Source: Planctomycetota bacterium
Lineage (GTDB): Bacteria > Planctomycetota > UBA11346
Reading direction: 5' to 3'
Assembly: GCA_044338255.1 (NCBI GenBank)
Contig: JBIILZ010000004.1
Coordinates: 3,808-67,807, forward strand
DNA: 64,000 bases
The notes beneath the pieces are model-generated. The model was not told the origin of the DNA and did not search any database. It was given only the letters and a program-made list of their open reading frames with translations. How positions within the stretch are numbered: position 1 is the first letter of the stretch; the number at the start of each line of letters is the position of its first letter. Below, piece after piece: positions 2,014 to 50,603 of this stretch. The position numbers and the translations under genes are program-made.

Positions 2014-2086
2014 GACGCGACCACGTATCGCCGCATGTGCGGGCATCCGGGCACGGACGCTCCGATCATGGTCATAATAATAGGGG

Positions 2087-2317
2087 TCACGAGCGGCCCT
2101 TCTTGACGGGCAGGGGCTTTTTCAGCGCCGCTGGAATGGAGTGGATGTCACGGGCCAGGGCGTCGATGTCCGCCTTCAGCAGCATCCGGTAGCCGTTTAC
2201 CGGATGGCGCTTGGCGCGTAGCAGGCCAGCAATCACCCAATTGCGCACGGTTCCAGCCGTAACTCCGAGGCACTTTGCGGCTTCGCTGACCAACATGAAC
2301 TCGGGGGCGGACGGCAT
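2087..2317 (-). CDS. MerR/excisionase-family helix-turn-helix DNA-binding protein
   Basis: 76 aa. The pattern MLVSEAAKCLGVTAGTVRNWVIAGLLRAKRHPVNGYRMLLKADIDAL matches excisionase/MerR-type HTH proteins. It lies directly upstream of, and co-oriented with, the SNF2 helicase gene. Confidence 0.7.
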   Translation of the reverse strand: MPSAPEFMLVSEAAKCLGVTAGTVRNWVIAGLLRAKRHPVNGYRMLLKADIDALARDIHSIPAALKKPLPVKKGRS

Positions 2318-2724
2318 GTGGCCACCCTATGGCATGGTGGGGTTAGTCAAACCCTACAAAGCGTTCAAACCAGGGGGCTTCGAGGACCTACGGCAAGCCC
2401 CAATTGGAAGGCACTTTGTCGAGCTGGTACTGAGTCATCGGGAGGCTCGGGGCCACGCACGCCAGATCGTGATTAGGTGCAATGGAGTTGGACTTCATTT
2501 CGAGGCGCTACCGCTGCGAAGTCACGTTCAGTTCCGGCTGCGTTCGATGGCACTTTGTGATGGTGAATTTCAACCGGAATCGGCTGCATTATTTTGTGTA
2601 CGCCAACCAGCGATTTCATGCGCAGGTTTTTTTTTGAGGATGTTTTTTTTTCAAAAATGTTCTTGAGGCATCGCCACCAAGCACCGTCCGGTGATGGCCG
2701 ATTGCCAACGCTTGAAAGAGGTAG

Positions 2725-2787
2725 CCAGACAGCCTTTTCCCGGATAGATTTCGCTTCGCGAAATCTATCCGGGAAAAGGCTGTCTGG
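2725..2787. repeat. Perfect 30-bp inverted repeat (hairpin with a 3-nt loop)
   Basis: ccagacagccttttcccggatagatttcgc / ttc / gcgaaatctatccgggaaaaggctgtctgg. The arms are exact reverse complements. ORFs on both strands reading through it give mirrored peptides, so it is non-coding. Confidence 0.9.
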
Positions 2788-2886
2788 TGATGATTTCCGG
2801 CAGCGAATAGCGCCAACAAAGGCAGCTCATTGTTCCGGCGAGAGCAAACTGCCCGAGTTGCGATTACGGGTCACCACAACCTTCCT

Positions 2887-3205
2887 AGGTGTCGACAAGG
2901 TGTTCCTGAGGTGTCGTCTCTTGTAGGTCTTGTAAATACAGCTCTTTATCTCCTCAGTCGACACCTTCGACACCTCGACACCTCTTTTAGAGACTCTGAG
3001 AGAATAATTGTGTCAGTGGAAAAGTGGTTGTGGACTCTGACTTCAGGCCATCTTTCCCAAGTAAAAAACCATAATGCGGATGTACACATCTAGCCCTATG
3101 CCGCAAAGCGCGAGGGCCATTGGTGTCGAGGTGCCAGTTCGAGTCATAACGATATGCCAGGAAATGGATTCGGCCAAATAACACCTGTTTTGACACCTCC
3201 GACAC
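2887..3205. promoter_or_regulatory. Cluster of about 10 iteron-like 8-mers, CGACACCT / AGGTGTCG
   Basis: AGGTGTCG occurs at 2887 and 2909, with the variant AGGTGTT at 2898. CGACACCT occurs at 2959, 2968 and 2976 in head-to-tail order. GGTGTCG is at 3122, ACACCT at 3181, GACACCT at 3192 and CGACAC at 3200. The region has no convincing ORF and lies upstream of the HTH-helicase operon. Confidence 0.55.
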
Positions 3206-3365
3206 TGGTATTTCATAGTCTCGTGGGTTGGACGATGGGTGAAATGAGGCGATTGTGATAGGAGGTCACCATGATGAATCGTCATAGACGGCCGGGGCGC
3301 AGTAAAAAAAAGCCAGCTTCCGGAAAGCCGGAAGCTGGCCATTGCTTCAGTTATTGTCCTGCAAT

Positions 3366-4271
3366 TTACGCTGCGATCTCTTTCGCCACGGAGCGACGAG
3401 CACGCAAGGCAATGTTGATGTCATCCCGCAGGGAACGCAGAGCAATGAGGCTGACAGTGGTCCATGACTTCACTTCTTTCATCGAAGTCGTCAAAGAATT
3501 TACGGCTGTCAGAGCATTCTTTTCATTATCGCTGGGGCTCTCCTCGGAGACGCTTGGCTGTGCCGTGGGAGTCGCAGAAGATTTATATTCATTGATGATG
3601 CGAATTGCCTGATGGAGGGACGTCTCTTTCGCAACTAACGCACGACAATGCGTGCCACTGCGAGCAACGTGAACATATTGCTCGACCTGACTTTGGCTGA
3701 ATCCACGATCTTTCCCAAGGACCTCACGAAACCACACGTGGACCGCATGGGAACGCTTTTTCGATTCGCCGAGCACAAAATTTGTGCCCACATTTTCGTA
3801 TGCGGCCAATACCAAGTCAGCACGCTCCAGCAGGGAAAGTTCACGGGTGGCAAGCTCCTGAAATGCAGCCGCTGGACCATCTTCCACCACCTGAGTGGTG
3901 GGCTTGATCTGCAATTCATTACAAATATTCATCAGCGTGCCGCCAGACCACACGACACCCTTTGAATCCACGAGGATTGGACGAGGGAGCCCAAATTTCT
4001 GCACGTACGCCTTTTCAGCCTCATAGTGCGGCCCGCAAGTTTCGGGAATGGGCAGACCGGGAATCTGGGCCAAGCCGGTAATGAAGGAACCGTCTGGGCG
4101 CGAGTCATTGTCGTGTAGGTTGTCTTGTGGATCTGCCACCACAGTAGATTTCTCATCAATGCGCATGCTGGGCTTGCGCTTTTTTGCTACGGCGCATGGC
4201 TGACTGGCGGTGGGGTCGATCTCTCCTTTGACATCAGAGGGAGAGAAGGTGGTGGGTGTTGAGGAATTCAT
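3366..4271 (-). CDS. Hypothetical protein with a possible degenerate ParB-N-like region
   Basis: Start chosen at MNSSTPTT (ATG 4271-4269). The segment PRPILVDSKGVVWSGGTLMNICNELQIKPTTQVV resembles the ParB N-terminal core but has GG where GxxR/HHR is expected. The functional call is weak. Confidence 0.4.
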   Translation of the reverse strand: MNSSTPTTFSPSDVKGEIDPTASQPCAVAKKRKPSMRIDEKSTVVADPQDNLHDNDSRPDGSFITGLAQIPGLPIPETCGPHYEAEKAYVQKFGLPRPILVDSKGVVWSGGTLMNICNELQIKPTTQVVEDGPAAAFQELATRELSLLERADLVLAAYENVGTNFVLGESKKRSHAVHVWFREVLGKDRGFSQSQVEQYVHVARSGTHCRALVAKETSLHQAIRIINEYKSSATPTAQPSVSEESPSDNEKNALTAVNSLTTSMKEVKSWTTVSLIALRSLRDDINIALRARRSVAKEIAA

Positions 4272-5155
4272 GGAAGTGCGTCCTTGGTCTGGATTGACGG
4301 CACATGGGTGCCGAAAAAGCAAAGCCCGAGAACCACACAACGACCGGCCCAAGGGAATCCCTGGGGCATAGGCATCAACTTCGATTTAGCGCGAGGGTGA
4401 CGCATCGTACATCCGGTAGCAGTGAGGGGCTCGGGTCGGAAGCGCGGGCAAAGCCGTGGTTCCGATAGATTCGGAAGCGCGGACGAAGCCGTGATTCCGA
4501 TATGTGCCCCCCGACACGCGTACGTGACCGGGATGGATGCGTCGTTGACGAGGAGCCTGATCGCTCGCTCGGCTGAGGAAGCTGTTGCCAGCTGTGGCGG
4601 TGACAGCCGCCGTCCTCTGAAAACACTATGAGCGTCAATCATAAATATGCAAGAACACCCTATAAAATGCGGCCATTTCAGGAGATAAGGTATCTGGCGA
4701 TCAAAACATCGTCGGCGCGCCGCAACTCTGCGGCCACCTCATCACCGGTGGCCATGTTGGCTGCCGGGTTCATCCCCAGCACCGAGGGCAGACCCATGAT
4801 CACGATCCACGAACAGCAGCTTTCATCCATGCGCCTGAACAGTCGGGAGGCGAGTGGCGGTGTCGCCGCCAGCTACTTCGAACGTCGCCACCATCAACTA
4901 CCACGCGACTGGCCCAGCGCGGTGTCGCGATTTCTGGATCGTGGCCCTGGACGGAATCTGCCTAAACCAAGTGCTGCGTCGCAGCCGTTGCCCAGACGCC
5001 GCGCGGCCTGAGTTGGTCGCCATCACGGTGCGAGTTTTCACCGACTCGCATCAGCGACTGTCTCACTGCCGACCATGGCAAGCCATGCCAGCCAACATCT
5101 GCATGGCTGTCATCTTGAGAACCCGCAAGCCACTGCGCACGATGGGCTGTTAGCT

Positions 5156-5446
5156 ATGGCAGAATCACGACCACCGGACCGACGAGTACTCTCAGTACGC
5201 CTTACGATCAAACAGATCCAACGTCTGAAGCGGGTGTGCCGCGATGGCGCAGGTAAACCGTTATATTTGACATTGGCTGGCTTGGTCGAGGCGGCTCTCA
5301 ACGCTGAACTCGATCGCGTCGAAAAAATTCTGGATCAGAGCATTGTCGATCCTGACGAGACCACGCTGTTGGATCGGCGCACGAAGCCGATCACCGGACG
5401 CATGTCGCGGATCAATAACTCGCAAGCGCGTTCCTCTTTGGAATAG
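5156..5446 (+). CDS. Small ribbon-helix-helix-like protein (hypothetical)
   Basis: MAESRPPDRRVLSVRLTIKQIQRLKRVCRDG... has the beta-strand then helix pattern of CopG/RHH proteins. It lies directly upstream of the EcsC-like gene. Confidence 0.4.
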   Translation: MAESRPPDRRVLSVRLTIKQIQRLKRVCRDGAGKPLYLTLAGLVEAALNAELDRVEKILDQSIVDPDETTLLDRRTKPITGRMSRINNSQARSSLE

Positions 5447-5479
5447 CACGGAAGTTATTTCAGGAACCAGGGAAATCAG

Positions 5480-6109
5480 ATGAGCAACGACGTCAGCACC
5501 CATACCGCCACCACCGCGCAGCGCATTCAAAACGCGTTGATGGACATCGTGGGGTCGGTGCCGACGCCGAGTTGTACAACCTCATCGAATCCTAAGCAGG
5601 AAGCCAGCAAGCTGGTGTCTCGTGCCAAAGCACAGGCTTCTGCCATCGCGGGCAGTTTGGCGTTGCCGCCGGGGCCATTTGGAATGATCACCATTGTTCC
5701 AGATATAATCATGATCTGGAAAACTCAGGCGCAGCTCGTCGCCGATATTGCGGCTCTCTATGGCAAGACCACCGAGCTGAAGCAGGAGGCGATGTTGTAT
5801 TGTCTGTTCCGCCACGGTGTCGCCAGCCTTGCTCGCGATGTCCTCATGCGTGTGGGCGAACGTGTCGTTATTCGTCGTGCTGGGCTGCGCTTTATGCAAA
5901 AGATGCTCGCCCAGGTTGGCGTTCGGATCACGCAAAAAGTCATCGGTAAAACCATTGCGCGGTGGATCCCGCTTGCGGGTGCCGTCGCGGTGGCGGGCTA
6001 TGCGTGGCATGATACCGCTAAAGTTGGCGAGACGGCGATCGACTTGTTCAGCCAGCAACTGGCGCTTGATGATAAAACTACGGAGGACGCACCCGTACCT
6101 GCCGCGTGA
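5480..6109 (+). CDS. EcsC-family protein
   Basis: 209 aa. LALPPGPFGMITIVPDIIMIWKTQAQLVADIAALYGK, followed by a C-terminal IPLAGAVAVAGYAWHDT, matches the conserved EcsC core pattern. Confidence 0.55.
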   Translation: MSNDVSTHTATTAQRIQNALMDIVGSVPTPSCTTSSNPKQEASKLVSRAKAQASAIAGSLALPPGPFGMITIVPDIIMIWKTQAQLVADIAALYGKTTELKQEAMLYCLFRHGVASLARDVLMRVGERVVIRRAGLRFMQKMLAQVGVRITQKVIGKTIARWIPLAGAVAVAGYAWHDTAKVGETAIDLFSQQLALDDKTTEDAPVPAA

Positions 6110-6203
6110 CCGTGTGCGCACAGAATCTGCCTCATCACGTTACCCCGCCGATTTCTCGGCGGGGTTATTCTTATCCATCTTCTTCGCACCAAAGGCACTT
6201 ACC

Positions 6204-6686
6204 ATGGCCATGAAATTGATCGTCACCATTTCCAAGAAAATTCCTGGTCCGCAGGACTATTCGTCCACCCAATCGTCGGTTTCTATCGAAGGCGAATTAG
6301 CCATCGGCCAAGATCCCGTGATTGAGGCAGCGCGGCTTCAGGCCCAAGCCGTTCAGGCCGTAGATCAGTTTCTTGGCCTCGCTCCCCAGGTTCAGACAGC
6401 GATTGCCCCGCCACAACCGGCGAACACGCACGCGTCATCGCATGCTGCTGCCCCAGGCGCACGTCCCGAGGTGACAACTGCTTCTCGCCCCTATCGCACT
6501 GGAAACCAGCGCCGCAGTGCGATCACACCAGCGCAAATGCGCTTTCTTCAGACACTGATCACGGACACCAACACGTCGCTGCCAGCCATCTTGGCGCATC
6601 ATGAGATTGGCGGTTTAGATCAGTTGTCAGCAGCAGCGGCGAGCTCGTTGATCGACGAGCTGCGCGCACGCGCGGTGCGGGCATGA
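6204..6686 (+). CDS. Hypothetical island protein
   Basis: An internal ATG at 6204 (MAMKLIVTISKKIPGPQDY...) avoids overlap with the EcsC gene. The stop overlaps the start of the next gene (ATGA at 6683). No motif recognised. Confidence 0.45.
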   Translation: MAMKLIVTISKKIPGPQDYSSTQSSVSIEGELAIGQDPVIEAARLQAQAVQAVDQFLGLAPQVQTAIAPPQPANTHASSHAAAPGARPEVTTASRPYRTGNQRRSAITPAQMRFLQTLITDTNTSLPAILAHHEIGGLDQLSAAAASSLIDELRARAVRA

Positions 6687-7498
6687 CGAACGTCACCATC
6701 ATTCCGCCAGGCACGGAAACGGCTGAGGTATATCGGGCGTCCGGCGCGTGGGGCAGTAGTTTGATCTCAAAATTCTTGGCTTCGCCCAGATTGGCCCACG
6801 CGATCAAAACTGGCGCTTACAAAGAGCCAGAGACAGCAGCGATGCGCACCGGAACGTATTTCCATCAACTACTTGATCCCGGATCTGGCTTTGACCAACA
6901 CCATCGCTGTGGTCCTGACGCCGATCGACGCACGACCATCTGGAAAACAGCTGAAGCCGCTGCGAAGGACGAAGGCATTGCCTTGCTGCCGAAAGATGAT
7001 TGGGACGCGCTCCATCGCATGGCAGACAGCGTGCGCTCGAATCCCGTGGCAGCGTCGCTGCTACACGGGGCAGAACATGAAACTGGATTTCGCATGGCGC
7101 ATGGCCCTATTCAGCTCCAAGGCCGGACAGATCTTCTACACCGATGGGACCACCTCGCTGATCTCAAGACGACGACCGACCTCAATGACTTCGGCAAATC
7201 CGTTGTCAATTATGGCTATCACCGGCAAGCCGCACTCTACCGCTGGATTGTACATGAGGCGTGTGGCAAGTGGTTGCCGTTCTCATTTATTTTAGTTGAG
7301 AAGGCGGAGCCATTTTATCGTTGCCGCGTGATCGACCTGACCGATGAATTCCTTGAGATCGGCCAATCCGAAGTCGAGTCGGCATTGGCGGACATCGTTG
7401 ATCGCACTGTGCGCAATGACTGGTCGGATCATCGTGATGCTGACTCCATTGCGCCACCGCATTGGCTTCGCGAATCCATGCACCAACGCGCTGCCTGA
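6683..7498 (+). CDS. PD-(D/E)XK nuclease (RecE/exonuclease VIII-like, DUF3799-like)
   Basis: 271 aa. GRTDLL...HLADLKTT is a D...(D/E)xK arrangement, followed by YGYHRQAALY, as in phage or ICE RecE-like PD-(D/E)XK nucleases. Confidence 0.6.
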   Translation: MTNVTIIPPGTETAEVYRASGAWGSSLISKFLASPRLAHAIKTGAYKEPETAAMRTGTYFHQLLDPGSGFDQHHRCGPDADRRTTIWKTAEAAAKDEGIALLPKDDWDALHRMADSVRSNPVAASLLHGAEHETGFRMAHGPIQLQGRTDLLHRWDHLADLKTTTDLNDFGKSVVNYGYHRQAALYRWIVHEACGKWLPFSFILVEKAEPFYRCRVIDLTDEFLEIGQSEVESALADIVDRTVRNDWSDHRDADSIAPPHWLRESMHQRAA

Positions 7499-7509
7499 TA
7501 TAGGAGGTT

Positions 7510-8358
7510 TTGATGACTGACGCATCCAAGACGCCAACGCGGTTGATCCCATTCGATGAGTGCATCGACAACCTTATCGTACGCATACAGCCCACTGACG
7601 CGGACGATTGCGCATGGTGGGCGGACGAGGGCGCATGGAGGAAACGCACGACCATTGGCCCGTTCATTGGCTTGACGGGAGTCATGAAGCCCAATTCGCT
7701 CACCGTTGTCCAAGCGCCCCGTCTGTTGGCAGCTGATGTGACTCTCGCCACCGCACTCGCCGTGGCGCATGCCGGCGGACACGTGCTCGTTGTCGATTTG
7801 CGCGATGCCGAAATAGATGTCGTGCAGCGCATCGGGCTGGTTCATGTGGGTATGCCTGAGTTATCGCATTCACGATTAGCCATGAATGCTGCAACGGCTA
7901 ATGACATCGCAACTCGCCTAATGGAACTCAGTGCGCTGCCGATTACGGTGGCGGTTGATCGACATCTGAAAATGTCCGATCTCTCGTCGTTGACGATCAA
8001 ATGGGCTTTAGCTCAGTCGAAGCCTGATCTACCATTTTCAATCGGCCTTCTGGTCATCACGGGTGTTGAGCGCATGGTGCACGACGCTGAGCAGTGGCGT
8101 GCGTTGAGTATTATAGCGAGGCAGGTGCGCTGTTCGATGTTGGTGGCGTTGGCGACGGAAGAGCGACCGCAGGCAGATGAATACCGCAAGTCGGACGACC
8201 GTGCCGATACATGGATCCGATGCGATGAGATGGTTGAAATACATACAGAAAGAAGCGGAACGTATCAGCCAGTCTTAGAACGTTGTTGGCTTCGGCCACC
8301 AACCACATTGCCAATGATCGTGCATGATCCATTACGTGGTCGTTGTACGATAAGCTAA
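7510..8358 (+). CDS. DnaB-C-terminal/RecA-fold-like protein lacking a Walker A motif
   Basis: The layout resembles the DnaB C-terminal domain: VLVVDLRDAEIDVVQRI, IGLLVITGVERM, SIIARQVRCSMLVALATEER and DRADTWIRCDEMVEIH. No GxxGxGK[ST] is present at the expected position (QAPRLLAADVTLA). Confidence 0.4.
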   Translation: MMTDASKTPTRLIPFDECIDNLIVRIQPTDADDCAWWADEGAWRKRTTIGPFIGLTGVMKPNSLTVVQAPRLLAADVTLATALAVAHAGGHVLVVDLRDAEIDVVQRIGLVHVGMPELSHSRLAMNAATANDIATRLMELSALPITVAVDRHLKMSDLSSLTIKWALAQSKPDLPFSIGLLVITGVERMVHDAEQWRALSIIARQVRCSMLVALATEERPQADEYRKSDDRADTWIRCDEMVEIHTERSGTYQPVLERCWLRPPTTLPMIVHDPLRGRCTIS

Positions 8359-8455
8359 TCACTGATTCACCGAAGAACTATGCGCTCGTTGCGCACGGCA
8401 ATCACCACCAGCACTGGCTTTTCAGCCGGGGCGTTTTCGTTTCTGGAGAAACCCC

Positions 8456-8671
8456 ATGTCCAAACTCAAGCGCCGCTATTCTTGGCCATCCTCGAAAATA
8501 TCGAAGGATGTCATGTTTGAGGTCTATCAGGTGGCACAGGAAACTGGTCGACCGATCACTGACATCATTGCTGATGCGGTGCACAGCGCGATGAACACAC
8601 GGTTCGACCAGAACCAACGTCAGCCCATCGGTTTCATCCAGACCCAGCAGTCGCCGAGACCGGCAGCCTGA
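8456..8671 (+). CDS. Small hypothetical protein (possible RHH-like)
   Basis: 71 aa, co-oriented between island genes. No strong motif. Confidence 0.35.
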   Translation: MSKLKRRYSWPSSKISKDVMFEVYQVAQETGRPITDIIADAVHSAMNTRFDQNQRQPIGFIQTQQSPRPAA

Positions 8672-8782
8672 TTCGGATGCCTTGACCATCATTCACGACT
8701 TCTGGCGGACCGAGCAAGCTGTCCGCATCTTCCACGGCAATTTCGCAAATCTCTAACACCCATTACACAGAGGATTCATTTC

Positions 8783-9880
8783 ATGAAGATTGGCTCTTCT
8801 CTCACGTCCGTTGCCCAGCGCGTCGATCATGTCCGCCGATCAGCGCGCGACTTCCTCGCCAAGCCGGCACAGGTGCGCATCTCCGCTGTCAGCGACAAAC
8901 CGCCCGCACTCGTGCTCGATGACGGCACGGGGGCTCTCTCCTTTGGCATCAGCGATCTCGTCCACGACCAACTCGCAGACTACGCGGGGATTCCGACCCC
9001 GTACTATCGCCGCATGCTGGCGGAAACGCCGGATTTGCTGGCATCCAATGCCAACACTTGGCTACAGAAGGGTGATGGCCGCCGCCTCGTTCGCACCGCG
9101 CTCAACGATCAGGAGCAGCCCATCGCCAGGGCCTTCCTGAGCGATCGGTACCGCCCCCTCGATCATTTTCAGTTGATGGAGGCCGTGCTTCCGCTCCTGC
9201 ACGAACAGGGCATTCGCATCGAATCCTGCGAGCTGACCGAGAAGAGGTTGTACCTCAAGGCGGTCAGCGAGCGGATCACCGGTGAGGTGAAGGTCGGCGA
9301 AACGGTGATGGCAGGGATCATCGTCTCGAATTCGGAGGTCGGCTTCGGTGCCCTCGGAATCCAGCCGCTGGTCTACACCCTGCGGTGCACGAATGGGCTG
9401 GTGGTCGAAGATTCCAGCCTCCGCCAGCACCATGTCGGCCGTCGCCATGGCGACCCTGGTGATAGCGACATCCGTCATCTCCTCAGCGACGAGACCCGCT
9501 CTGCCGACGACCGTGCCTTTTTCCTCAAGGTCCGCGACGTGGCAAAGGCGGCCCTCGACGAAGGCGCATTCCGTCGGCAGGTGGAGCGCCTAAAGATCGC
9601 GGCCGGCACCCCGATCAATTCCAACAACATCGAACGTGTGGTGGAGGTCACCGCCAAGCGCTTCGGCCTGACTGATGAGGAAGGTGCCGGCGTCCTGGCC
9701 CATCTGATTCGGGGCGGAGACTTGTCCCATTGGGGTCTCTGTTCGGCCGTCACGCGATTTAGCCAGGACGTGGGCAGCTACGACCGAGCTACCGAGTTGG
9801 AGCGGATCGGTGGCAAGTTGGTCGAGTTGCCCAAAAGCGATTGGCAGCGGCTGTCGGCTGCCACGCCGTCGGTGAATTGA
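8783..9880 (+). CDS. DUF932/DUF945-family protein (phage/plasmid-like)
   Basis: 365 aa. FLSDRYRPLDHFQLMEAVLPLL, GIIVSNSEVGFGAL and the position immediately upstream of radC are typical of DUF932 genes on integrative elements. Confidence 0.65.
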   Translation: MKIGSSLTSVAQRVDHVRRSARDFLAKPAQVRISAVSDKPPALVLDDGTGALSFGISDLVHDQLADYAGIPTPYYRRMLAETPDLLASNANTWLQKGDGRRLVRTALNDQEQPIARAFLSDRYRPLDHFQLMEAVLPLLHEQGIRIESCELTEKRLYLKAVSERITGEVKVGETVMAGIIVSNSEVGFGALGIQPLVYTLRCTNGLVVEDSSLRQHHVGRRHGDPGDSDIRHLLSDETRSADDRAFFLKVRDVAKAALDEGAFRRQVERLKIAAGTPINSNNIERVVEVTAKRFGLTDEEGAGVLAHLIRGGDLSHWGLCSAVTRFSQDVGSYDRATELERIGGKLVELPKSDWQRLSAATPSVN

Positions 9881-10576
9881 ATGGAGACCTCCAACGACTT
9901 CACGGTCGGACCTCCGTGCCAAACGCCGCCGGTCATCAATCCACTGCTAGTTGATCACGCGAAGATGAGCGACGCCGACTTGGTAAAAGCGGTTTTTGGC
10001 CATCGAAGGCAGCGGCTTCGCGAACAAATCTCCAGCGCCGTTGATGGGGTTGGGCTGTTGACGATGACTAGCCTTGATCCCATTGCACTCATGACGATTG
10101 CAGACTTGCCGCCAGCAATGGCCGCACGCTTCACGGCAATTGTTGAGCTGGCGCGGCGGCTTGCTGTAGGCAGTCGTCCTGCTCGCGTAAGTCTGATGAA
10201 TCCAGAAGAGGTCTGCGCGGTAATGGCCCCGACCCTTGCCGCAATTTCCCATGAAGAGTTTTGGTGCTTGCCGTTGGATTCCCGTAAGCAACTCATCGGT
10301 TACCCCCGCATTGTCAGTCGCGGCGACGTGGACGGTACGGACGCTGGCACGCGCACGTTTACACGCCAAGCATTGCTCGCTCACGCCACATCCGCGATCG
10401 CTGTTCACAATCATCCGACTGGTGATCCCGCGCCTTCACCGTCAGACCATGCGGTAACCGTGCGACTCGTGAGCGCAGGTCGAAGCGTTGACGTGCCATT
10501 ACTCGATCACGTTATCATCGGCGACGGTGGACGGTTTGTATCACTGAGACGCAATGCACCGGAACTGTTTCGATGA
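9881..10576 (+). CDS. radC: RadC-like JAB/MPN domain protein
   Basis: The JAMM motif HNHPTGDPAPSPSD is followed by LLDHVIIG. The start codon directly abuts the DUF932 stop. Confidence 0.85.
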   Translation: METSNDFTVGPPCQTPPVINPLLVDHAKMSDADLVKAVFGHRRQRLREQISSAVDGVGLLTMTSLDPIALMTIADLPPAMAARFTAIVELARRLAVGSRPARVSLMNPEEVCAVMAPTLAAISHEEFWCLPLDSRKQLIGYPRIVSRGDVDGTDAGTRTFTRQALLAHATSAIAVHNHPTGDPAPSPSDHAVTVRLVSAGRSVDVPLLDHVIIGDGGRFVSLRRNAPELFR

Positions 10577-11261
10577 ACCGCCTTGACCATCCATCAACAA
10601 CCAGGGAACGACCACCGGTAGCGCCGGGAATTTACCAGAGTGATGCTCCCCCGGTAAACGTGATCGTTTCGTTAGCGTCACACTCCAGGAATCAGCATCG
10701 CCGAAATTGCGCGGCCACCGCACAAGTGGGAGGCGTCACACATGGCGAATAATAATAAAGATCCGTGTCGGTTACAGTGGATCGAGGGCCTTCTGGTGGC
10801 GCTGACCGCGCTGCTGGCTTGGTTGGCTCGGCGCAGGCCGTAAAAAAAAATCGGCGAATCTTGATGGTACAAATTGGCACTTGGAAAAACAATTTGGGAC
10901 GGTAAAGTTCTCATACCTCAGCCCTGCCTGCCGAGCACTGTACTTGTTTTACCGGCCTTTTTTCAGGCCCAACCGTACTCGCAAAACTCAACTGTACCCG
11001 GCAGCCTAGCGTTCATGCCGGTGTTGTATCGGCGTGCGCAAAGTCTTCGAAGCGACGTGGCAAACGTCGCGGGCTCTTGCTTGCGAGTACATCATGGCTG
11101 TAAAACCCAAAGGCCACGCCCTTTTGGCAACTTCGTCGCGCACGAAGGCTAAATTTCACACGACCACCCACCAGAAGGTCGGTCCCCGCACATCTAAAAC
11201 ACTGAAATCCCGTCGTGGGATCGTTCCTGTTCGACAGGCAGCGATCCCACGAGAGGGGTTG

Positions 11262-11441
11262 ATGACCATGGATGAGATCTGCGCCTATACCAAAATCGCA
11301 CGTTCAACCATCTATCGGTATCTTGCGAACGGCCTGAAAACGTATCAACACGGCCCTGGCGGTGCGCGTCGCTTCCTTGTTGGGGACGTGTTGCATTTCT
11401 TGTCTCGTCCGGCGTCAGTGAACACGGGGGTGGTGTCATGA
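11262..11441 (+). CDS. Excisionase/AlpA-type HTH DNA-binding protein
   Basis: MTMDEICAYTKIARSTIYRYLANGLKTYQHGPGGARRFLVGDVLHFL fits the excisionase-family HTH pattern. It is the first gene of a tightly packed xis-orf-recombinase operon. Confidence 0.6.
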   Translation: MTMDEICAYTKIARSTIYRYLANGLKTYQHGPGGARRFLVGDVLHFLSRPASVNTGVVS

Positions 11442-11839
11442 ACACATCCACGAAAAACCTGATTGTTGGCGTAAATTTCAAAACCTATTTCACGAAAGAA
11501 ACTGCCATGCAGATCGTTTCCGATCCGCCTATGGCGGATTTTTATCGCCATCCGGTGACCTCCTTCCTCGGAGTTCAACCTGAATGGCGTCATGAAGATT
11601 CATCGAATGTCCGGCCATCTCCTCGCATTGCTCGATCGTCTAAAAGCACGCGTGGTGTCGTAAAGCATGCGCCGCCAGATTTTCACCGCCCTGGCTCGGT
11701 CGCGGTCGAATTCCGTTCGACTGGAGATGTTCAGGTTTCTCGGCGCATTGCCGAAGGGGTGATGCTGCTGCGGCAGTGGGGGCGTGAGGCAATCGCCGCT
11801 CGGTCGTTGAATGAACCTGTTTCGGCGTTGGCGAGCTGA
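11438..11839 (+). CDS. Hypothetical protein in the recombination module
   Basis: The start overlaps the xis stop (ATGA at 11438) and the stop lies 2 nt before the recombinase start. No motif recognised. Confidence 0.4.
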   Translation: MNTSTKNLIVGVNFKTYFTKETAMQIVSDPPMADFYRHPVTSFLGVQPEWRHEDSSNVRPSPRIARSSKSTRGVVKHAPPDFHRPGSVAVEFRSTGDVQVSRRIAEGVMLLRQWGREAIAARSLNEPVSALAS

Positions 11840-11841
11840 AC

Positions 11842-13467
11842 ATGAAACCAATACCAATCACGACAACCACGAAACCATATGTGATCTACACCCGGGTTTC
11901 AACCGAAGAGCAGGCTGAAAAAGGTCACAGCCTCGCGGCTCAGGAAAAAGCATGCCGCGCGACGTGCGAAGGTCGTGGCCTTCCCATTGGTCATGTGTTG
12001 TGCGACTCAGGCCAGAGCGCAAAGAATCTCGATCGCCCACAAGTTCAGCGTTTGTTGGAGATGGTCCGCGCCGGGCAGATCGGTGGCATCATGATTTGGC
12101 GGCTCGACCGCTTGACGCGCAACCTCCGTGATTTGCTTGATTTGGTCGAGTTGATTTCGGAAACAAATACGGCACTTGTCTCGGTCTGTGAGCAGATCGC
12201 CACCGATACTCCGGCAGGGCGCATGATGTTGGCCATCCTTGGGACCGTTGCGCAATGGGAACGCGAGACGATCGCTGAACGAATCCGCATGGGCGTTCGC
12301 CAGCGCATTCAGGATGGTGGTTGGACCGGTGGGCCAACGCCTGCTGGCTGCAAAGTAGTAGAAGAAGCAGGCGGGAAAATGTTGGAGGTCGACCCGACGA
12401 CCGCGCCCATCGTCAGTCAGATCTGGTCCATGGTGGCGAATGGAGCAACGCTCAACGACGTCGCCGTGTACCTGACCGAGGGTGGCATTGAACCACCGCG
12501 CAAGATGGGGTGGCGTCCAGCAACCGTCCATTCGCTCTTGAAGCAGATTCGTCTCATCGGGTTGCTGGTGTCCGATGAGACCTTCAATGCGGCTCATGCT
12601 GTGCTTCGGTCTCGGAGCTGCCCGGCTCGTCCCAATGGCGGTGCTCGCCTCTCCAGTCAGTCGCGGTCTGAACGCATCTGGCCACTGGCCAACTTGGCCC
12701 GCTGCGCCCACTGCGGCGGTTCTATGTTTGGGCACTCGGCCGTGAGCGGCAAAGGAGTCCGCTACTTCTACCTCCGCTGCACCAACAAGACCAAGAACCT
12801 GTGCAAGGCCCCAGACCTTGCGGCTCCGGTTTGGGAGGCTGCCATCTGCAAGGCGGTGCAGATGGTGTTGGTCGACCAGGGGCCGTATGCTGAGCGTCTC
12901 AATGCGACGACCGTTGAGCTTCAGCGCCGAGCTAGCACCCGTCAGGTTGACCTGGACGTGATGATCAAGGAGCGCGATGGGGTACAGGCACGCATCGCCC
13001 GACTGGTGAGCCTCGCAGAAGCTGGCGATGTCCCGATCAAGGGGATCGCCGATCGACTCAAGGAACTGGAGAAGGAGTCGGCTACCCTGGACCTGAAGGT
13101 TGCCGAGATGGAAGGGCTGTCGTCAGCCGCGCACATCGACGGCGACAGCGTGCAGATGCTCCTGGAGCAGATGCAGGCCGGGTCGGTGGGACTGGAGAGC
13201 CGCACCCCGGAAGAGCAGAAGCTGGTCCTGCACAGCCTCCTGGTGGAGGTGCAGATTGGCCTTGGGAAGCCAATCGGCTTAGCCATGTGGATGCCGGATC
13301 TGATGGCCTTGGCCGGGTCCAAAGGGACACCGCAAACCAAGGAACCCATGCCAACCGGAGGGGTTTCCTCCGGCGGACATGGGTTCGCCTGGTCATCTTC
13401 ATTGGTGGAGGCGGAGGGAATCGAACCCTCGTCCGAACATGTTCGTACACCGCGTCTACGCGTGTAG
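11842..13467 (+). CDS. Large serine recombinase (island 1 integrase)
   Basis: Resolvase catalytic domain: YVIYTRVSTEEQ (Ser nucleophile) and WRLDRLTRN. A recombinase domain, a zinc ribbon (CAHCGGSMFG...YLRCTNKTKNLC) and a coiled-coil follow. The last ~21 codons plus the stop (13403-13467, 65 nt) are encoded by the antisense of the tmRNA 3' end. Confidence 0.9.
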   Translation: MKPIPITTTTKPYVIYTRVSTEEQAEKGHSLAAQEKACRATCEGRGLPIGHVLCDSGQSAKNLDRPQVQRLLEMVRAGQIGGIMIWRLDRLTRNLRDLLDLVELISETNTALVSVCEQIATDTPAGRMMLAILGTVAQWERETIAERIRMGVRQRIQDGGWTGGPTPAGCKVVEEAGGKMLEVDPTTAPIVSQIWSMVANGATLNDVAVYLTEGGIEPPRKMGWRPATVHSLLKQIRLIGLLVSDETFNAAHAVLRSRSCPARPNGGARLSSQSRSERIWPLANLARCAHCGGSMFGHSAVSGKGVRYFYLRCTNKTKNLCKAPDLAAPVWEAAICKAVQMVLVDQGPYAERLNATTVELQRRASTRQVDLDVMIKERDGVQARIARLVSLAEAGDVPIKGIADRLKELEKESATLDLKVAEMEGLSSAAHIDGDSVQMLLEQMQAGSVGLESRTPEEQKLVLHSLLVEVQIGLGKPIGLAMWMPDLMALAGSKGTPQTKEPMPTGGVSSGGHGFAWSSSLVEAEGIEPSSEHVRTPRLRV

Positions 13468-13765
13468 GCAGTCATTTGTCGTCATCCATGAACACGACGG
13501 CTGCCAGCCTGGTTCATGGAGCAGTCCGGCTTTTCCTCGCTGACGGTAATCGGACGGCTCCGTCAGCCAGCTGATAATTATTATGGAAATTGCCGGGAGC
13601 ATCAGCACCCCCGGGTCTCCAACTCGTTACTTAATTAATTAAGCAGCGAGAGCGTACTCGACATGATCGTCGGCACGTGTGTTTTTGCGGGTTATTTACG
13701 TGGCCTCCCGCACCACGACGCGCGGCAAAGCGCCGGTGCATGCCCGTCGAAACCTGGTCGCCCCC
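13403..13765 (-). ncRNA. ssrA: tmRNA (SsrA)
   Basis: On the minus strand the 5' end is GGGGGCGACCAGGTTTCGACGGG. The 3' end is GGGTTCGATTCCCTCCGCCTCCACCA, with the G3:U70 pair in the acceptor stem. The tag ORF GCC GAC GAT CAT GTC GAG TAC GCT CTC GCT GCT TAA encodes ADDHVEYALAA. It is followed by TAATTAATTAA, which gives stops in all three frames. Confidence 0.9.
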
Positions 13766-16966: not shown

Positions 16967-16999
16967 GGGTGGGGAAGGCTGGGGCTTTCGCGGCTTTTT

Positions 17000-17063
17000 C
17001 CAGTGGGAGTTCCAGTGGGAGTTCCAGTGGGAGTTCCAGTGGGAATTCCAGTGGGAGTTCCAG
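17000..17063. repeat. 12-bp tandem repeat CCAGTGGGAGTT, 5.3 copies
   Basis: Five head-to-tail copies, the fourth being the variant CCAGTGGGAATT, plus a partial CCAG. It lies 34 bp upstream of the accD start, in the accD/nusA divergent intergenic region. Confidence 0.95.
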
Positions 17064-24236: not shown

Positions 24237-24275
24237 AACCGCGTCTCGGCAGCTGCCGGGGCGCGGTTTTTTTTT
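24237..24275 (+). terminator. Rho-independent terminator
   Basis: aaccgcgtctcggcagctgccggggcgcggtt is a GC-rich hairpin followed by T9. It lies 28 nt after the stop of the preceding gene. Confidence 0.7.
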
Positions 24276-25747: not shown

Positions 25748-26000
25748 AGTCACTGGTCGCTGGTCGTGGTCCCTGGCCCCTGGTCTCTGGTCTCTGGTCC
25801 CTGGTCTCTGGTCTCTGGTCCCTGGTCTCTGGTCTCTGGTCTCTGGTCTCTGGCCTCTGGTCTCTGGTCCCTGGCCTCTGGTCCCTGGTCCCTGGCCCCT
25901 GGCCCCTGGCCTCTGGCCTCTGGTCTCTGGCCCCTGGTCCCTGGTCCCTGGCCTCTGGCCCCTGGTCTCTAATCCCTGACCTCTGGTCGCCAGTCCCTGG
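25748..26000. repeat. Heptanucleotide tandem array A: about 36 units of GGYCYCT (plus-strand sense)
   Basis: ggtccct ggcccct ggtctct ggtctct ggtccct ... read in register across the array. It fills the whole gap between the convergent ntrC-like gene (stop 25742) and the lipoprotein gene (stop 26010). Confidence 0.95.
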
Positions 26001-26573: not shown

Positions 26574-26687
26574 GGCGGAATGAAAAGCCCTGACCTGCGT
26601 CCAGGCAACCAGAATCAGCCCGAGGTCGAGCCTGCGTTGCACCCACGTGGGCGAGGTTGCGTTTTTTTTGTGCGAGCAGCCCTCTCC

Positions 26688-26731
26688 CAGCTTCCTCCCA
26701 GCTTCCTCCCAGCTTCCTCGCAGCTTCCTCG
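26688..26731. repeat. 11-bp tandem repeat CAGCTTCCTCC, 4 copies
   Basis: Head-to-tail copies, with the last base of copies 3 and 4 changed to G. It lies in the divergent region between the lipoprotein gene (start 26573) and the ABC ATPase gene (start 26771). A T8 run precedes it at 26662-26669. Confidence 0.9.
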
Positions 26732-32947: not shown

Positions 32948-33673
32948 ATGCGGCTGTTGTTGCTGCGAGTGGTGTTGCTGCGAGTGGTGTTGCTGCGAGT
33001 GGTGTTGCTGCGAGGGGTCCCGCTGCTGTGCGTGCTGCTGCTGGCCTGCGGATGCTCGTCGGTGGTTCGCACCATGCCTCCGCCGGGTCTCACGCCGGCG
33101 CATCAACTGACGGTGTTCACCGATGGTTTCCACAGCGGCGTGGTCCTCGACAAGGCGGCGCTGCCGGTGACCCTCGACCCGCAAGGTGGCGATGAGCCGG
33201 CCTCGTGGCCGCAGCAGACCCTACATTTCGGCGAGTTGAAATGGACCGCGGGCTACGACAACTCCATGTGGCATGCCCTCGGCCTGGTCATCATTCCCGG
33301 TGAGGGCGTGGTGCAGTCGGATCATACCCGCCCCGGTCTGGTCGATGTCCCCGGCCTCGAACTCGGCAAGCTGCGGATGTGGAATTTTCCGGTGAATCAG
33401 GAGGGCATGGATGCGGTGGTGGTCAATCTCAAAAAGAATTGGTTCGAAGGCGAGATCATGCCCCGAGAGATCGGTACGCCCTCGACGTTGTACCCGGCCC
33501 AACACACATGGTCGGTCTATCACAATTGCCATGACTTCACCCTCGACCTGTTGCGCTCGGCCGGGCTCGATCTCTATCCGCGGTGGCTGTATCTCGCTGG
33601 CGGAATGACCACCGACCTCGACGAAGCCCAGAGTGAGATGGCTCGCGCTGGGGTCACCGTCATCGGGAAATGA
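32948..33673 (+). CDS. DUF2459-like lipoprotein
   Basis: The lipobox is LLLACGC. FTDGFHSGVVL and YHNCHDFT resemble the DUF2459/TIGR02117 family. The true start may be an internal GTG near 32995-33000 (see the 15-bp repeat). Confidence 0.55.
   Translation: MRLLLLRVVLLRVVLLRVVLLRGVPLLCVLLLACGCSSVVRTMPPPGLTPAHQLTVFTDGFHSGVVLDKAALPVTLDPQGGDEPASWPQQTLHFGELKWTAGYDNSMWHALGLVIIPGEGVVQSDHTRPGLVDVPGLELGKLRMWNFPVNQEGMDAVVVNLKKNWFEGEIMPREIGTPSTLYPAQHTWSVYHNCHDFTLDLLRSAGLDLYPRWLYLAGGMTTDLDEAQSEMARAGVTVIGK
32959..33018. repeat. 15-bp tandem repeat GTTGCTGCGAGTGGT, 4 copies
   Basis: Three exact copies and one copy with a 1-nt change, directly after the mutarotase stop. It encodes (LLRVV)n if the annotated ATG at 32948 is used. 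Confidence 0.9.
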
Positions 33674-33701: not shown

Positions 33702-33838
33702 CGTCAGGGGCCAGTGACCAGGGGCCAGTGGCCAGGGACCAGGGACCAGGGACCAGAGACCAGAGGCCAGAGGCCGGGGACCAGAGGCCAGGGACCAGGG
33801 GCCAGGGGCCAGCGACCAGCGACCAGCCCCCAATCACC
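33702..33838. repeat. Heptanucleotide tandem array B: about 19 units of CCAGRGR (reverse orientation of array A)
   Basis: ccagtga ccagggg ccagtgg ccaggga ccaggga ccaggga ccagaga ccagagg ... It lies between the convergent DUF2459 gene (stop 33673) and glyQS (stop 33844). Confidence 0.95.
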
Positions 33839-40180: not shown

Positions 40181-40270
40181 GACCTGGGATCAGGGATCAG
40201 GGGCCAGGGATCAGGGATCAGGTGCTAGGAACCAGAGACCAGGGGCCAGAGACCAGAGACCAGGGACCAG
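40181..40270. repeat. Heptanucleotide array C: about 13 units of GRYCAGG/CCAGRGR orientation
   Basis: gacctgg gatcagg gatcagg ggccagg gatcagg gatcagg ... gaccaga gaccagg gaccagg. It lies upstream of the oxidoreductase-pyrD operon. Confidence 0.9.
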
Positions 40271-40360
40271 GAAGCATAGGAAGCTCCATGTTCAAATACT
40301 GACGCTCGACTACGGTATACTGGGTTGCTGGACTTTGAGCTTCGTTCGTCGATCTCGAAA

Positions 40361-40533
40361 GCTGGTCGCTGGTCGCTGGTCGCTGGTTCCTGGTCCCTGG
40401 TCCCTGGTCCCTGGTCCCTGGTCCCTGGTCCCTGGTCCCTGGTCCCTGGTCCCTGGACTCTGGTCTCTGGCCCCTGGCCCCTGGCCCCTGGCCCCTGGTT
40501 CCTAATCCCTGGCACCTGGTTCCTAATCCCTGT
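40361..40533. repeat. Heptanucleotide array D: about 25 units of GGYCYCT, inverted relative to array C
   Basis: It includes nine exact GGTCCCT copies (40392-40454) and four exact GGCCCCT copies (40469-40496). A 90-bp unique spacer separates it from array C. Confidence 0.95.
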
Positions 40534-40568: not shown

Positions 40569-40736
40569 CTAGGAGCCTGTCGGGAATAGATGACCGAGGA
40601 TGGCGAAGGGATCGTGCGGCAGATCCAAGGCGGCAAGGCGGGCGGATAGCGAGAGCTATCTGACCGTTTTGCCAACGCCGGAGCTGCCGTACGAGACCGA
40701 GTCAGCCGACCGAATCTATTCCCGACAGACTCCTAG
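40569..40736. repeat. 168-bp element bounded by 23-bp terminal inverted repeats (MITE-like or a long-range RNA stem)
   Basis: The left arm is ctaggagcctgtcgggaatagat (40569-40591). The right arm is atctattcccgacagactcctag (40714-40736). 22 of 23 positions are complementary. An internal hairpin, gatagcgagagctatc, is also present. Confidence 0.6.
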
Positions 40737-43033: not shown

Positions 43034-43087
43034 AAAGTCCATGGCGAAAGTCCATGGCGAAAGTCCATGGCGAAAGTCCATGGCGAA
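43034..43087. repeat. 13-bp tandem repeat AAAGTCCATGGCG, 4 exact copies
   Basis: Each unit contains the palindrome CCATGG. The unit length is not a multiple of 3. It lies in the divergent region between the L7/L12-like gene (start 42937) and the thioredoxin-like gene (start 43115). Confidence 0.95.
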
Positions 43088-43505: not shown

Positions 43506-44201
43506 TCAAAAAGCAGCTGAGGCGCCGAGGAACGGCCCGCCGATGGTCAGGTCCCAGGTATCGCCGTTGTCGAGCTTCTGCGTGCTGGTGACCTGACGCC
43601 AGCCGCCGATGAGCGCCAGTGGACCGATGAGGCGCCAGTTGAGCTCCGCGACACCGTCAATCACATCGTCACGATCCAAGGCTCCGCCCATGAGCCGGGC
43701 TTCAAGGCTCAAGCCATCGGTGAGGCGGACCCAGCCACGCGCGGCGGCAGCAGGCACCAGGAAATCCTCGCGGTTGCCGGTGGCGGGATCGAGGTCTTGG
43801 GCGAGCACGCCGGCGCCCAGCGCCACGCCCACCCGATCGATCAATTCCAGTTCCCACATGGCCACGGCATAGCCGCCGGTGACTTTGGCATCCGCGCCAT
43901 TGTCTGCGTCATCCTTCCACTGCCAGGCGCCGGCATGGATGCCGGGAATCAGCGGCACCGGCAGATCGACATAGGCATCGACCATGACGTTGGTGTGGTC
44001 ATCATCCAGGCCGACGCTGCTGCCTGAGGTCGAGCCCCCGCCTTGCGGTTTGATGGTGACCGTCGGCTGCTGGTACCACGCCGCCGCTGAGACGCGAACG
44101 AAGGGATCACTGAGGTTGTCAGCCGCGAAGGCGGCAGTGCCGCAGGCAGCATTGCCGCAGGCCACGAGGAAAGTGCTCAGGATTGAAGTTGAAATGCGCA
44201 T
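43506..44201 (-). CDS. Outer-membrane beta-barrel-like protein
   Basis: The signal peptide is MRISTSILSTFLVACGNAACGTAAFA. Strands are alternating and aromatic-rich. The C-terminal residue is Phe. Confidence 0.5.
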   Translation of the reverse strand: MRISTSILSTFLVACGNAACGTAAFAADNLSDPFVRVSAAAWYQQPTVTIKPQGGGSTSGSSVGLDDDHTNVMVDAYVDLPVPLIPGIHAGAWQWKDDADNGADAKVTGGYAVAMWELELIDRVGVALGAGVLAQDLDPATGNREDFLVPAAAARGWVRLTDGLSLEARLMGGALDRDDVIDGVAELNWRLIGPLALIGGWRQVTSTQKLDNGDTWDLTIGGPFLGASAAF

Positions 44202-44881: not shown

Positions 44882-44955
44882 AGGTTTCGGAGCTCGGCAT
44901 ATCGAAGCCTGAAGCACCGAAGCATCTAAGCACCGAAGCTTCGGTACTTCGAAAT

Positions 44956-45133
44956 CTGGTTTTTGGTCTCTGGTCTCTGGTCTCTGGTCCCTGGCTCCTA
45001 GTCCCTGGCCCCTGGTCTCTGGTCTCTGGTCTCTGGTCTCTGGTCTCTGGTCCCTGGTCCCTGGCCCCTGGTCCCTGGTCCCTGGTCTCTGGCCTCTGGC
45101 CCCTGGTCCCTGGTCCCAGTTCCCAGTTCCCAG
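44956..45133. repeat. Heptanucleotide array E: about 25 units of GGYCYCT
   Basis: ggtctct ggtctct ggtctct ggtccct ggctcct agtccct ggcccct ggtctct ... It lies between convergent smpB (stop 44881) and the adenosyltransferase gene (stop 45160). The palindrome accgaagcttcggt (44932-44945) precedes it. Confidence 0.95.
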
Positions 45134-49799: not shown

Positions 49800-50603
49800 A
49801 TGCTGACTCCTGGTCTGGTCTCCATCAGTTTTCGTACCTTGCCGGTGCCGGCGGTTCTGGGCTTGGCGCGCACCGCCGGTCTGCAGGCCATCGAATGGGG
49901 CGGCGATGTGCATTGCCCGCACGGTGACGAGGCCACCGCGCGGACGGTGGCAGCGGCGACCGCCGCCGCCGGCCTGACGGTTGCCGCCTATGGCTCGTAT
50001 TACCGCCTCGGCGTGAGCGAGGGCCAGGGCCTGAGTTTCGCCCAGGTGCTGGCGTCGGCGGTGGCCATCGGTGCCCCGGCGATCCGCGTCTGGGCCGGCA
50101 ATCAGGGCTCGGCAGCGACCTCGCCCGGGCAGCGGACGGCGATCATCAGCGATGCCCGTCGTATCGCCGACCTCGCGGCGGCGGTTGGCATCCGCGTGCT
50201 CAGCGAATGGCATGGCGGGACGCTGACCGACACCAGTGCCAGCGGCGTCGACTTTCTGAGCGCGGTCGGTCATCCGCATTTCGCGACCGTGTGGCAGCCG
50301 AATGTCGGACTGAGCACCGCGGCGGCCTTGGCCGAGCTTGCCGCCGCGCTGCCTTGGGTCGAACAACTGCATGTCTTTCACTGGCGTGAGCACGAGCGCC
50401 TGCCCTTGCAGGAGGGGGCCGACGCTTGGCGGCGCTACCTGGAGCTCGCCGCCACCAGCGGCAAGGTCCGCGCTGCGCTGCTCGAATTCGTGCGCGCTGA
50501 CGAGCCGGCGCAACTGGCTCGTGATGCCGCCACTTTACTCGACTTACTCCACCAGCTTGACCTCCTTGCCCCGCTCGCCGAACAGAAAGAGACCCCCGCA
50601 TGA
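49800..50603 (+). CDS. Sugar phosphate isomerase/epimerase (xylose isomerase-like TIM barrel)
   Basis: GLVSISFRTLPVPAVLGLARTAGLQAIEWGGDVH and the overall ~265-aa layout fit the AP endonuclease 2/xylose isomerase-like TIM-barrel family. Confidence 0.65.
   Translation: MLTPGLVSISFRTLPVPAVLGLARTAGLQAIEWGGDVHCPHGDEATARTVAAATAAAGLTVAAYGSYYRLGVSEGQGLSFAQVLASAVAIGAPAIRVWAGNQGSAATSPGQRTAIISDARRIADLAAAVGIRVLSEWHGGTLTDTSASGVDFLSAVGHPHFATVWQPNVGLSTAAALAELAAALPWVEQLHVFHWREHERLPLQEGADAWRRYLELAATSGKVRAALLEFVRADEPAQLARDAATLLDLLHQLDLLAPLAEQKETPA

Follow-up and report, generated by a model that had tools for sequence, protein, structure and literature searches.

The STRR of heterocystous cyanobacteria are tandem heptamers dispersed in non-coding DNA, with few unit families per genome and with units such as CCCCAAT, TTGGTCA and CAACAGT. 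Arrays of a comparable kind, built from the heptamer CTGGYCY (RGRCCAG on the other strand), occur at five places in a 64-kb stretch of DNA from a Planctomycetota bacterium (64,000 nt of contig JBIILZ010000004.1; this whole stretch is called the window here) and are the subject of this analysis. In many bacterial genomes no class of long simple-sequence repeats (LSSRs) is more abundant than the heptanucleotides, which is ascribed to polymerase slippage in those parts of Mrázek, Guo and Shah (2007) that are relayed by PMC4679880 and PMC4692102. The GGGNATC heptamers of Xanthomonas and Nostoc are 89-93% intergenic, lying on average 28 nt from the upstream open reading frame (ORF) and 160 nt from the next; they are found on the sense strand after stop codons, are rare between divergent genes, form some inverted pairs and, while keeping their positions, differ from one sister species to the next (Rehm et al. 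2015, PMC4692102). In Geobacter metallireducens, GGACCGG x4 elements at 49 sites, some inside genes, have been proposed as regulatory RNA elements (PMC2700814), and in marine Beggiatoaceae the AT-rich unit TAACTGA forms direct repeats of 2-6 copies, most of which precede start codons (MacGregor 2015, PMC4679880). The literature searched contained neither the unit CTGGYCY nor a planctomycete-like host, nor any tandem CTGGTCC or GGTCTCT strings in a bacterial context. The arrays described here are a new unit family in a new host group, and unusually long ones, within a known and still unexplained class of repeats.

Tandem Repeats Finder (TRF), applied to the window, reproduced all five arrays that a first-pass annotation of this DNA had listed, with period 7, 13-34 copies and 76-88% matches. 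On the plus strand, CTGGYCY is read in array A (25748-26000; TRF 25749-25988, 34.4 copies), array D (40362-40533; TRF 40362-40532, 24.4 copies) and array E (44956-45133; 22 + 2.9 copies, about 25 units). On the minus strand it is read in array B (33702-33838; TRF 33705-33826, 17.4 copies or about 18 units) and array C (40181-40271; 13 copies by TRF, about 12 units in phase), the latter being the inverted partner of D across a unique spacer of 90 nt (40272-40361). The unit dimer CTGGYCYCTGGYCY occurs 68 times in the window, always within the five arrays, against 0.02 occurrences expected by chance from 100 dinucleotide-preserving shuffles, so that the array lengths exceed what the composition of the sequence would give. 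Single CTGGYCY units are scarce in the window beyond the limits of the arrays.

The arrays are built in blocks. In-phase units are chiefly CTGGTCT, CTGGTCC, CTGGCCC and CTGGCCT, of which array A holds 11, 7, 5 and 5, respectively, and variant units are found at the array ends. Arrays A, B and D have heads of CTGGTCG units (two in B, three in D), while the tails consist of degenerate CTAATCC/CTGACCT in A, CTGATCC variants in C, CTGGTTC/CTAATCC in D and CAGTTCC in E. Behind its head, array D carries a run of nine identical CTGGTCC units and four CTGGCCC units. Identical units are adjacent in 13 of 23 pairs in array D (4.1 expected) and in 9 of 24 pairs in array E (4.2 expected), and TRF finds higher-order periods of 21 and 56 nt within the arrays, the latter in E. 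Homogeneous cores, degenerate ends and runs of identical neighbours are the usual signature of growth by local duplication.

How do these arrays compare with the systems above? Iteration of a unit of 1-11 nt, length above chance, a non-coding position and polymorphism between strains are all found in them, as in LSSRs. As far as Mrázek, Guo and Shah (2007) is reported in PMC4679880 and PMC4692102, the likeness extends to near-perfect head-to-tail 7-nt repeats of intergenic DNA that go far beyond chance, to large high-GC genomes of non-pathogens, to a preference for period 7 over 6 or 8, and to strain differences in length and sequence, with replication slippage proposed as the origin; within the same limits, the window arrays differ by their length (up to 34 units), their mixed unit types and the unit CTGGYCY itself. 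With the GGGNATC repeats they share the position near the end of the upstream gene, the G-rich strand as sense after stops and antisense upstream of starts, some inverted pairs, scarcity between divergent genes, and variation in length and sequence among relatives while the position is kept; the loci studied agree, in the main, with the GGGNATC pattern of lying no more than about 50 nt from a stop codon with a G-rich sense strand, or upstream of a start with the G-rich strand antisense. Unlike the GGGNATC repeats, they have the unit RGRCCAG/CTGGYCY and show no preference for four units, the number that would supply four G-tracts (12-34 in the window). As with TAACTGA in Beggiatoaceae, one heptamer family dominates, is intergenic and is patchy across phyla. 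The closest unit is the GGACCGG of Geobacter, the reverse complement of which, CCGGTCC, is one base from CTGGTCC, but in contrast to the fixed four copies of that element the window arrays have 12-34 copies and lie outside genes. CCGGTCC units are also found inside CTGGTCC arrays of other genomes (L064, L107). The STRR share the dispersed tandem heptamers, but not the unit, TTGGTCA being two substitutions from CTGGTCC. The resemblance to STRR noted in the first-pass annotation holds, and the host is no cyanobacterium: the nearest named homologues of SmpB and RlmN come from metagenome-assembled genomes of Planctomycetes at 62-72% identity.

The gene map of the window was drawn from Pfam matches, JGI gene calls on the identical contig and a caller based on GC content at third codon positions (GC3), which reproduced the JGI calls. 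By both sets of calls, all five arrays are non-coding and lie between genes, and the ORFs that cross them are stop-free artefacts. Three convergent junctions of the core are occupied, as had been claimed: array A takes up 253 of 267 nt in the gap from an NtrC-type sigma-54 activator gene (plus strand, stop 25742) to a gene of 210 aa (minus strand, stop 26010), array B 137 of the 170 nt between a gene of 241 aa (plus, stop 33673) and the gene for prolyl-tRNA synthetase (ProRS; minus, stop 33844), and array E 178 of the 278 nt between the genes for SmpB (plus, stop 44881) and cobalamin adenosyltransferase (minus, stop 45160). The fourth convergent junction of the core (43498/43506) is indeed a gap of 7 nt. 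Arrays C and D are located in a co-directional spacer of 616 nt rather than at a convergent junction. Array D lies downstream of an RlmN-like radical SAM gene (minus strand, stop 40745), with its G-rich strand as the sense strand of that gene, and from array C it is 53 nt to the start of a downstream 3-hydroxyisobutyrate-dehydrogenase-like gene; therefore, not all arrays are at 3' ends. In the window, three of the four convergent junctions bear arrays against one of about 27 others (Fisher p = 0.003).

This convergent preference, proposed in the first-pass annotation, holds for the window but is not the rule elsewhere. With gene calls in the other genomes being heuristic (GC3-based), the 51 intergenic arrays of a first set (about 100 genomes) for which both flanks were called divide into 31 co-directional, 13 convergent and 7 divergent cases, against 417, 95 and 107 background junctions in the same loci, which gives an odds ratio of 2.0 for convergent junctions (p = 0.04); a second set, from metagenomes, has 26 co-directional, 3 convergent and 10 divergent cases. 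A position close to the upstream stop codon is the robust rule. Within co-directional spacers this stop is the nearer border of the array in 26 of 31 cases of the first set (median distance 10 nt, compared with 86 nt to the following start) and in 16 of 26 cases of the second set. About one third of the short matches (28-40 nt) fall within predicted ORFs. The convergent preference of the window is thus a local consequence of a broader after-stop-codon rule.

The orientation of arrays relative to the preceding gene is biased as well. To score it, the G and C contents of the sense strand were compared for every period-7 array, whatever its unit, that lies no more than 30 nt from a stop. The sense strand had more G than C in 65 of 86 such stop-proximal arrays (p = 2e-6), and the same was seen in 42 of 54 arrays with units other than CTGGYCY (p = 5e-5), while the metagenome set alone, with 20 of 30, was not significant. 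In the window, arrays E, D and C fit the rule of a G-rich sense strand and its upstream-antisense counterpart; A and B are ambiguous and cannot be scored because both of their flanks are stop codons. Scoring by the strand that bears CTGG (24:7 and 14:12 in the two sets) was dropped, the label being wrong for arrays rich in CTGGTCG. A cause in the replication strand does not fit the window either, in which the G-rich strand is the plus strand for B and C and the minus strand for A, D and E within 20 kb.

A scan for (CTGGYCY)x4 in one genome per GTDB species returned at least 111 stretches, and arrays of this unit are present in at least 15 bacterial phylum-level groups, as counted from record titles. 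Acidobacteriota account for at least 24 stretches, Gemmatimonadota for at least 15, Gammaproteobacteria for at least 14, Verrucomicrobiota for at least 11, Desulfobacterota, Myxococcota and 'delta' groups for at least 10, Planctomycetota for at least 9, Actinomycetota for at least 6, Chloroflexota for at least 5, and Alphaproteobacteria and Clostridia for at least 4 each, with single or double cases in five more groups. The non-target tandem repeats in the same 8-kb loci have mostly period 7 (88), 14 (43) or 21 (18) against 5 of period 6 and 7 of period 8. The units of these non-target repeats (loci L003-L113, from unrelated genomes) are diverse and usually present in 4-5 copies, with examples such as AACTCCC x24 in L062 and AAGACGC x4.6 at three sites in L094. 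The controls for unit specificity were run in viral contigs, where the target unit was found in 22 stretches, permuted heptamers of the same composition in 13 and 28, and an octamer control in 14; viruses show no heptamer excess, and a hexamer control with more than 120 matches is uninformative as triplet-compatible repeats may be coding. The CTGGYCY unit itself is not special.

The comparison of relatives at the same junctions shows how quickly the arrays change. In the window, the gap of 278 nt at junction E holds 25 mixed units. One strain (L116; SmpB 100% identical) begins its array as the window does, its contig ending about 35 nt into the array, while two others have (CTGGTCC)n (L114, 95% nucleotide identity) and (CTGGCCC)n (L115, 94%), both contigs ending in the array. 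The SmpB proteins of L114, L115 and L116 are 100% identical to that of the window, and the unit types nevertheless differ among these strains. A relative at about 90% (L445) has a gap of 156 nt with about 12 units, mostly CTGGTCC, and one at 85% (L323) a gap of 127 nt with (CTGGTTT)x9.7, so that the complete lengths of the junction are 278, 156 and 127 nt. In two relatives at 75-76% (L325, L326) no array is present and the junction holds a palindromic element of about 105 nt. Length and sequence are thus polymorphic between close strains at junction E, in line with the copy-number hotspot that the first-pass annotation had considered among several possible roles, whereas a JGI contig from a different sample (L001) matches array A in every base. 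Between the SmpB stop and array E, an 8-mer repeat, CGAAGCAC (44903-44939, plus strand), forms a palindromic hairpin and carries an indel of 16 nt between strains.

The other junctions tell of gain and loss as well. At junction A, a relative at 83% (L120) has only a gap of 7 nt between the two stops (1896-1902), which reads TCTGGTC, exactly one unit, and may represent the seed of an array or the remnant of a collapsed one. A relative at 90% (L119) differs in the neighbouring gene and has an array-free gap of 117 nt, and one at 77% (L122) has an end that resembles a miniature inverted-repeat transposable element (MITE) together with the same palindromic element as L325 and L326. Unrelated sequence without arrays C and D follows RlmN in relatives at 86-90%. 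For array B, a look-up of the neighbouring protein of 241 aa found no match, and hence no strain comparison exists. Synteny with the 86-90% relatives breaks at array junctions A and C/D (L119 1797-2845; L445 6058-6385; L446 3050-3355), where the genes after the 210-aa gene and the RlmN-like gene are not those of the window. From the differing array content at orthologous junctions it follows that the arrays are young, lineage-restricted, gained and lost, and evolving in concert.

The palindromic element of the distant relatives is dispersed (L326 3526-3640, L325 3546-3660, L122 5530-5650), its copies being about 84% identical, and has the form A5-long hairpin-T5 with a folding free energy of -85 kcal/mol (z = -8.2). 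In the 75-77% relatives it is found at the same convergent junctions where the window has arrays A and E; the window itself is devoid of any copy. It looks like a mobile bidirectional terminator.

The arrays are probably heptanucleotide LSSRs, that is micro- or minisatellites of the variable-number tandem repeat type, which have grown by slippage and survive in untranslated DNA behind stop codons. According to this explanation, they would lengthen, shorten and become uniform through replication slippage and through unequal exchange among their units, and would persist only where a unit that is not a triplet is harmless, which is the untranslated DNA directly after stops. As both borders of a convergent gap are stop codons, an array can take nearly the whole gap there, which leads to the completely occupied junctions of the window. 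In a co-directional spacer the array would hug the upstream stop and keep clear of the promoter and ribosome-binding region further downstream. In transcripts, the arrays probably form 3' tails. The preference for a G/A-rich sense strand implies that orientation is filtered, and the most economical reason would be selection against a long C-rich untranslated tail that loads Rho and causes polarity. Near-neutrality and the Rho filter, like slippage itself, are inferred.

Several observations weigh against this explanation. All five arrays belong to one unit family and three of them share the CTGGTCG head, which is not expected under random seeding. An array has been kept at junction E across lineages of about 85-100% identity, and the bias towards a G-rich sense strand (65 of 86) means that the arrays are not fully neutral. 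Finally, distant relatives carry their palindromic A5-hairpin-T5 element at the same two convergent junctions, and this element is absent from the window; functional replacement, with the arrays in the role of a substitute, is therefore possible.

The last point lends some weight to an unlikely alternative, namely that the arrays are hairpin-free transcription stops or insulators for converging genes and have replaced the palindromic terminator element of the relatives. The C-rich strand, (CUGGUCY)n, would load Rho as an unstructured tail in the manner of a Rho utilisation (rut) site for one gene, or the G-rich strand would favour R-loops or G-quadruplexes for the other. This would account for three of four convergent junctions in the window being filled by arrays, none of them with a hairpin-plus-T terminator, and for the palindrome at junctions A and E of the 75-77% relatives. 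A rut region consists of at least 70-80 nt of C-rich, G-poor, weakly structured and untranslated RNA. The C-rich strand of the arrays has 38-41% C and only 2-8% A and is weakly structured, and across genomes the C-rich-sense orientation is depleted in operon-like spacers, as real Rho loading would give. However, the G content of 23-34% is not low for a rut site, and rut-like features are present on one strand only, so that any such activity would be one-directional. Unit type and length change freely between strains, array C is situated upstream of a gene start, and arrays elsewhere lie mostly in co-directional spacers. The gaps of 7 nt at junction A of the 83% relatives and at 43498/43506 in the window indicate that no spacer element is required.

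Predicted RNA structure does not help this alternative. Array A RNA folds no better than its shuffles in either direction (z = -1.30 and -1.55), and no Rfam family matches the arrays at gathering thresholds. A terminator scan of the window found no intrinsic terminator, with its GC-rich hairpin and U-run, at any array junction. Of the two terminators annotated before as following core genes, the one at 24237-24268 was confirmed, while 51763-51787 is a 7-bp hairpin with only four T's directly after tRNA-Gln. The only strong predicted structure is that of the inverted pair C/D, a long imperfect hairpin with the 90-nt spacer as its loop, beside a separate inverted-repeat element (the 616-nt spacer folds with z = -12.8). 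Among the roles suggested by the first-pass annotation, bidirectional termination or insulation is thus not supported, given the folding of array A and the junctions that work with a gap of 7 nt, and dsRNA formation is plausible for the C/D pair and only there. On the main reading, the arrays are not a conserved, dedicated terminator.

A stronger form of the replacement idea is rather improbable. It holds that the arrays took over the job of the palindromic bidirectional terminators by Rho loading on the C-rich strand and R-loop formation or G-rich pausing on the other. If it were true, the rule of a G-rich sense strand after stops would reflect a general part, so far undescribed, that heptamer arrays play in the shaping of 3' ends in bacteria.

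The chances are slim that the arrays are multivalent binding platforms, with one protein of the OB-fold or cold-shock type per 7-nt unit, or form G-quadruplexes, as has been proposed for the GGGNATC repeats of Xanthomonas and Nostoc, and affect the stability of mRNA 3' ends or DNA topology. Such a function would explain the strict period of 7 nt common to many unrelated units in many genomes, and CspB has been reported to bind heptamer repeats with one protein per unit, according to the citation of that work in PMC4679880. It would also suit the preference for the G-rich strand as sense beside stops, the same rule as that of Rehm et al. (PMC4692102), and canonical G3+N1-7 quadruplex motifs are present on the G-rich strand of arrays A (1), C (1), D (3) and E (2). 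On the other hand, array B has no such motif, and CTGGTCT (AGACCAG on the other strand), the most frequent unit of A and E, lacks a G-run. As many window units are without a G-run, the formation of G-quadruplexes can hardly be the common property. In addition, the unit drifts between strains in its last three bases (TCC, CCC, TCT, TTT), arrays are absent from orthologous junctions of relatives, and no candidate binding protein was identified.

It is very improbable that the arrays spread as pre-formed copies, through recombination or an undefined copying process, rather than arising independently. The polar layout common to A, B and D (2-3 CTGGTCG units as head, a CTGGYCY core and a tail of the CTAATCC/CTGATCC type) could be read in this way, as could the presence of a single unit family in 38 kb of core and the coincidence of two array junctions with synteny breaks against the 86-90% relatives. 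However, the arrays have no flanking sequence in common, lack terminal inverted repeats and target duplications, and do not qualify as MITEs or repetitive extragenic palindromic (REP) elements. The CTGGTCG head is not general in the arrays of other genomes, and a metagenome scan with the head motif CTGGTCGCTGGTCGCTGGYCY gave only unrelated and mostly short matches (median 33 nt), 44 of them inside ORFs, for which reason the motif was also rejected as a lineage marker.

That the arrays are assembly artefacts, an outcome that would have undone the first-pass annotation, is scarcely credible: short-read contigs do stop very often inside arrays (L002, L114-L118, L321), but the junctions in question also bear arrays when different samples are assembled independently (JGI, ENA, Logan), L001 has array A without a single change, and L323 and L445 span complete array-containing junctions. 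Exact copy numbers from short-read assemblies are uncertain. A blastn search of the window against 111 genome loci and 117 metagenome loci gave matches only to L001 and L002.

Other repeats are found in the same DNA. A perfect 13-mer, AAAGTCCATGGCG, is repeated 4.2 times at 43034-43087 in the divergent spacer between a gene of 339 aa and a TXD17-like thioredoxin gene; it is single-copy in L114 and L115 (94-95% nucleotide identity), which makes it a strain-specific expansion in a promoter region. Further examples are a near-perfect 12-mer, TTCCAGTGGGAG, x5.5 at 16998-17063, an 11-mer, CTCCCAGCTTC, x4.3 at 26684-26730 in the divergent spacer beside the gene next to array A, a 15-mer x4.1 where the 241-aa gene starts (32958-33018), and another 15-mer at 44129-44162 with 2.3 copies in the window and 3.3 in L114. 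The lineage seems generally prone to tandem duplication. Right after the stop of the gene at 50600-51568, a 26-mer is repeated 2.1 times (51571-51625) and contains GGGGACCAGGGGC/GGGGTCCAGGGGC, two heptamer-like units with the G-rich strand as sense; this may be a proto-array. Between array D and the RlmN-like gene lies an element of 168 nt (40569-40736) with inverted-repeat ends of 23 nt (CTAGGAGCCTGTCGGGAATAGAT, one mismatch), which folds as a long hairpin and the end motif of which, CTAGGAGYCTGTCGG, is also present in the relatives L119, L122 and L123. The element probably represents a MITE family of this lineage and, like the palindromic element of the relatives, is distinct from the heptamer arrays.

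The core is bordered by two low-GC flanks, integrative islands in which no array was found, as the first-pass annotation had said. The left flank (1-13765), with a GC content of 53-58% compared with about 65% for the core, is closed by a tmRNA gene on the minus strand (13403-13765; tag ADDHVEYALAA), the end of which is overlapped by a gene for a large serine recombinase (11842-13467), and looks like an integrative island inserted in ssrA. The right flank (51683-64000) is a second integrative element. It begins at tRNA-Gln (51683-51756), the 3' end of which is overlapped by another gene for a large serine recombinase (51725-53248, minus strand), and continues with a RepA-like gene (53510-55186, a weak Pfam match) and an ORF of more than 2190 aa (57418-63999) that leaves the window.

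If the arrays are only products of slippage, as seems most likely, the finding is an ordinary one. In practical terms, short-read assemblies break at the arrays, which could be used as strain markers. Why bacterial tandem repeats favour a unit of 7 nt, and whether such arrays act at all, has been a question since 2007. To this question the locus adds the CTGGYCY unit family in at least 15 phylum-level groups, a graded series at one junction that runs from a terminator-like palindrome through a short homogeneous array to a long mixed array, and an orientation rule, the G-rich strand as sense beside stops, which is valid for unrelated units.

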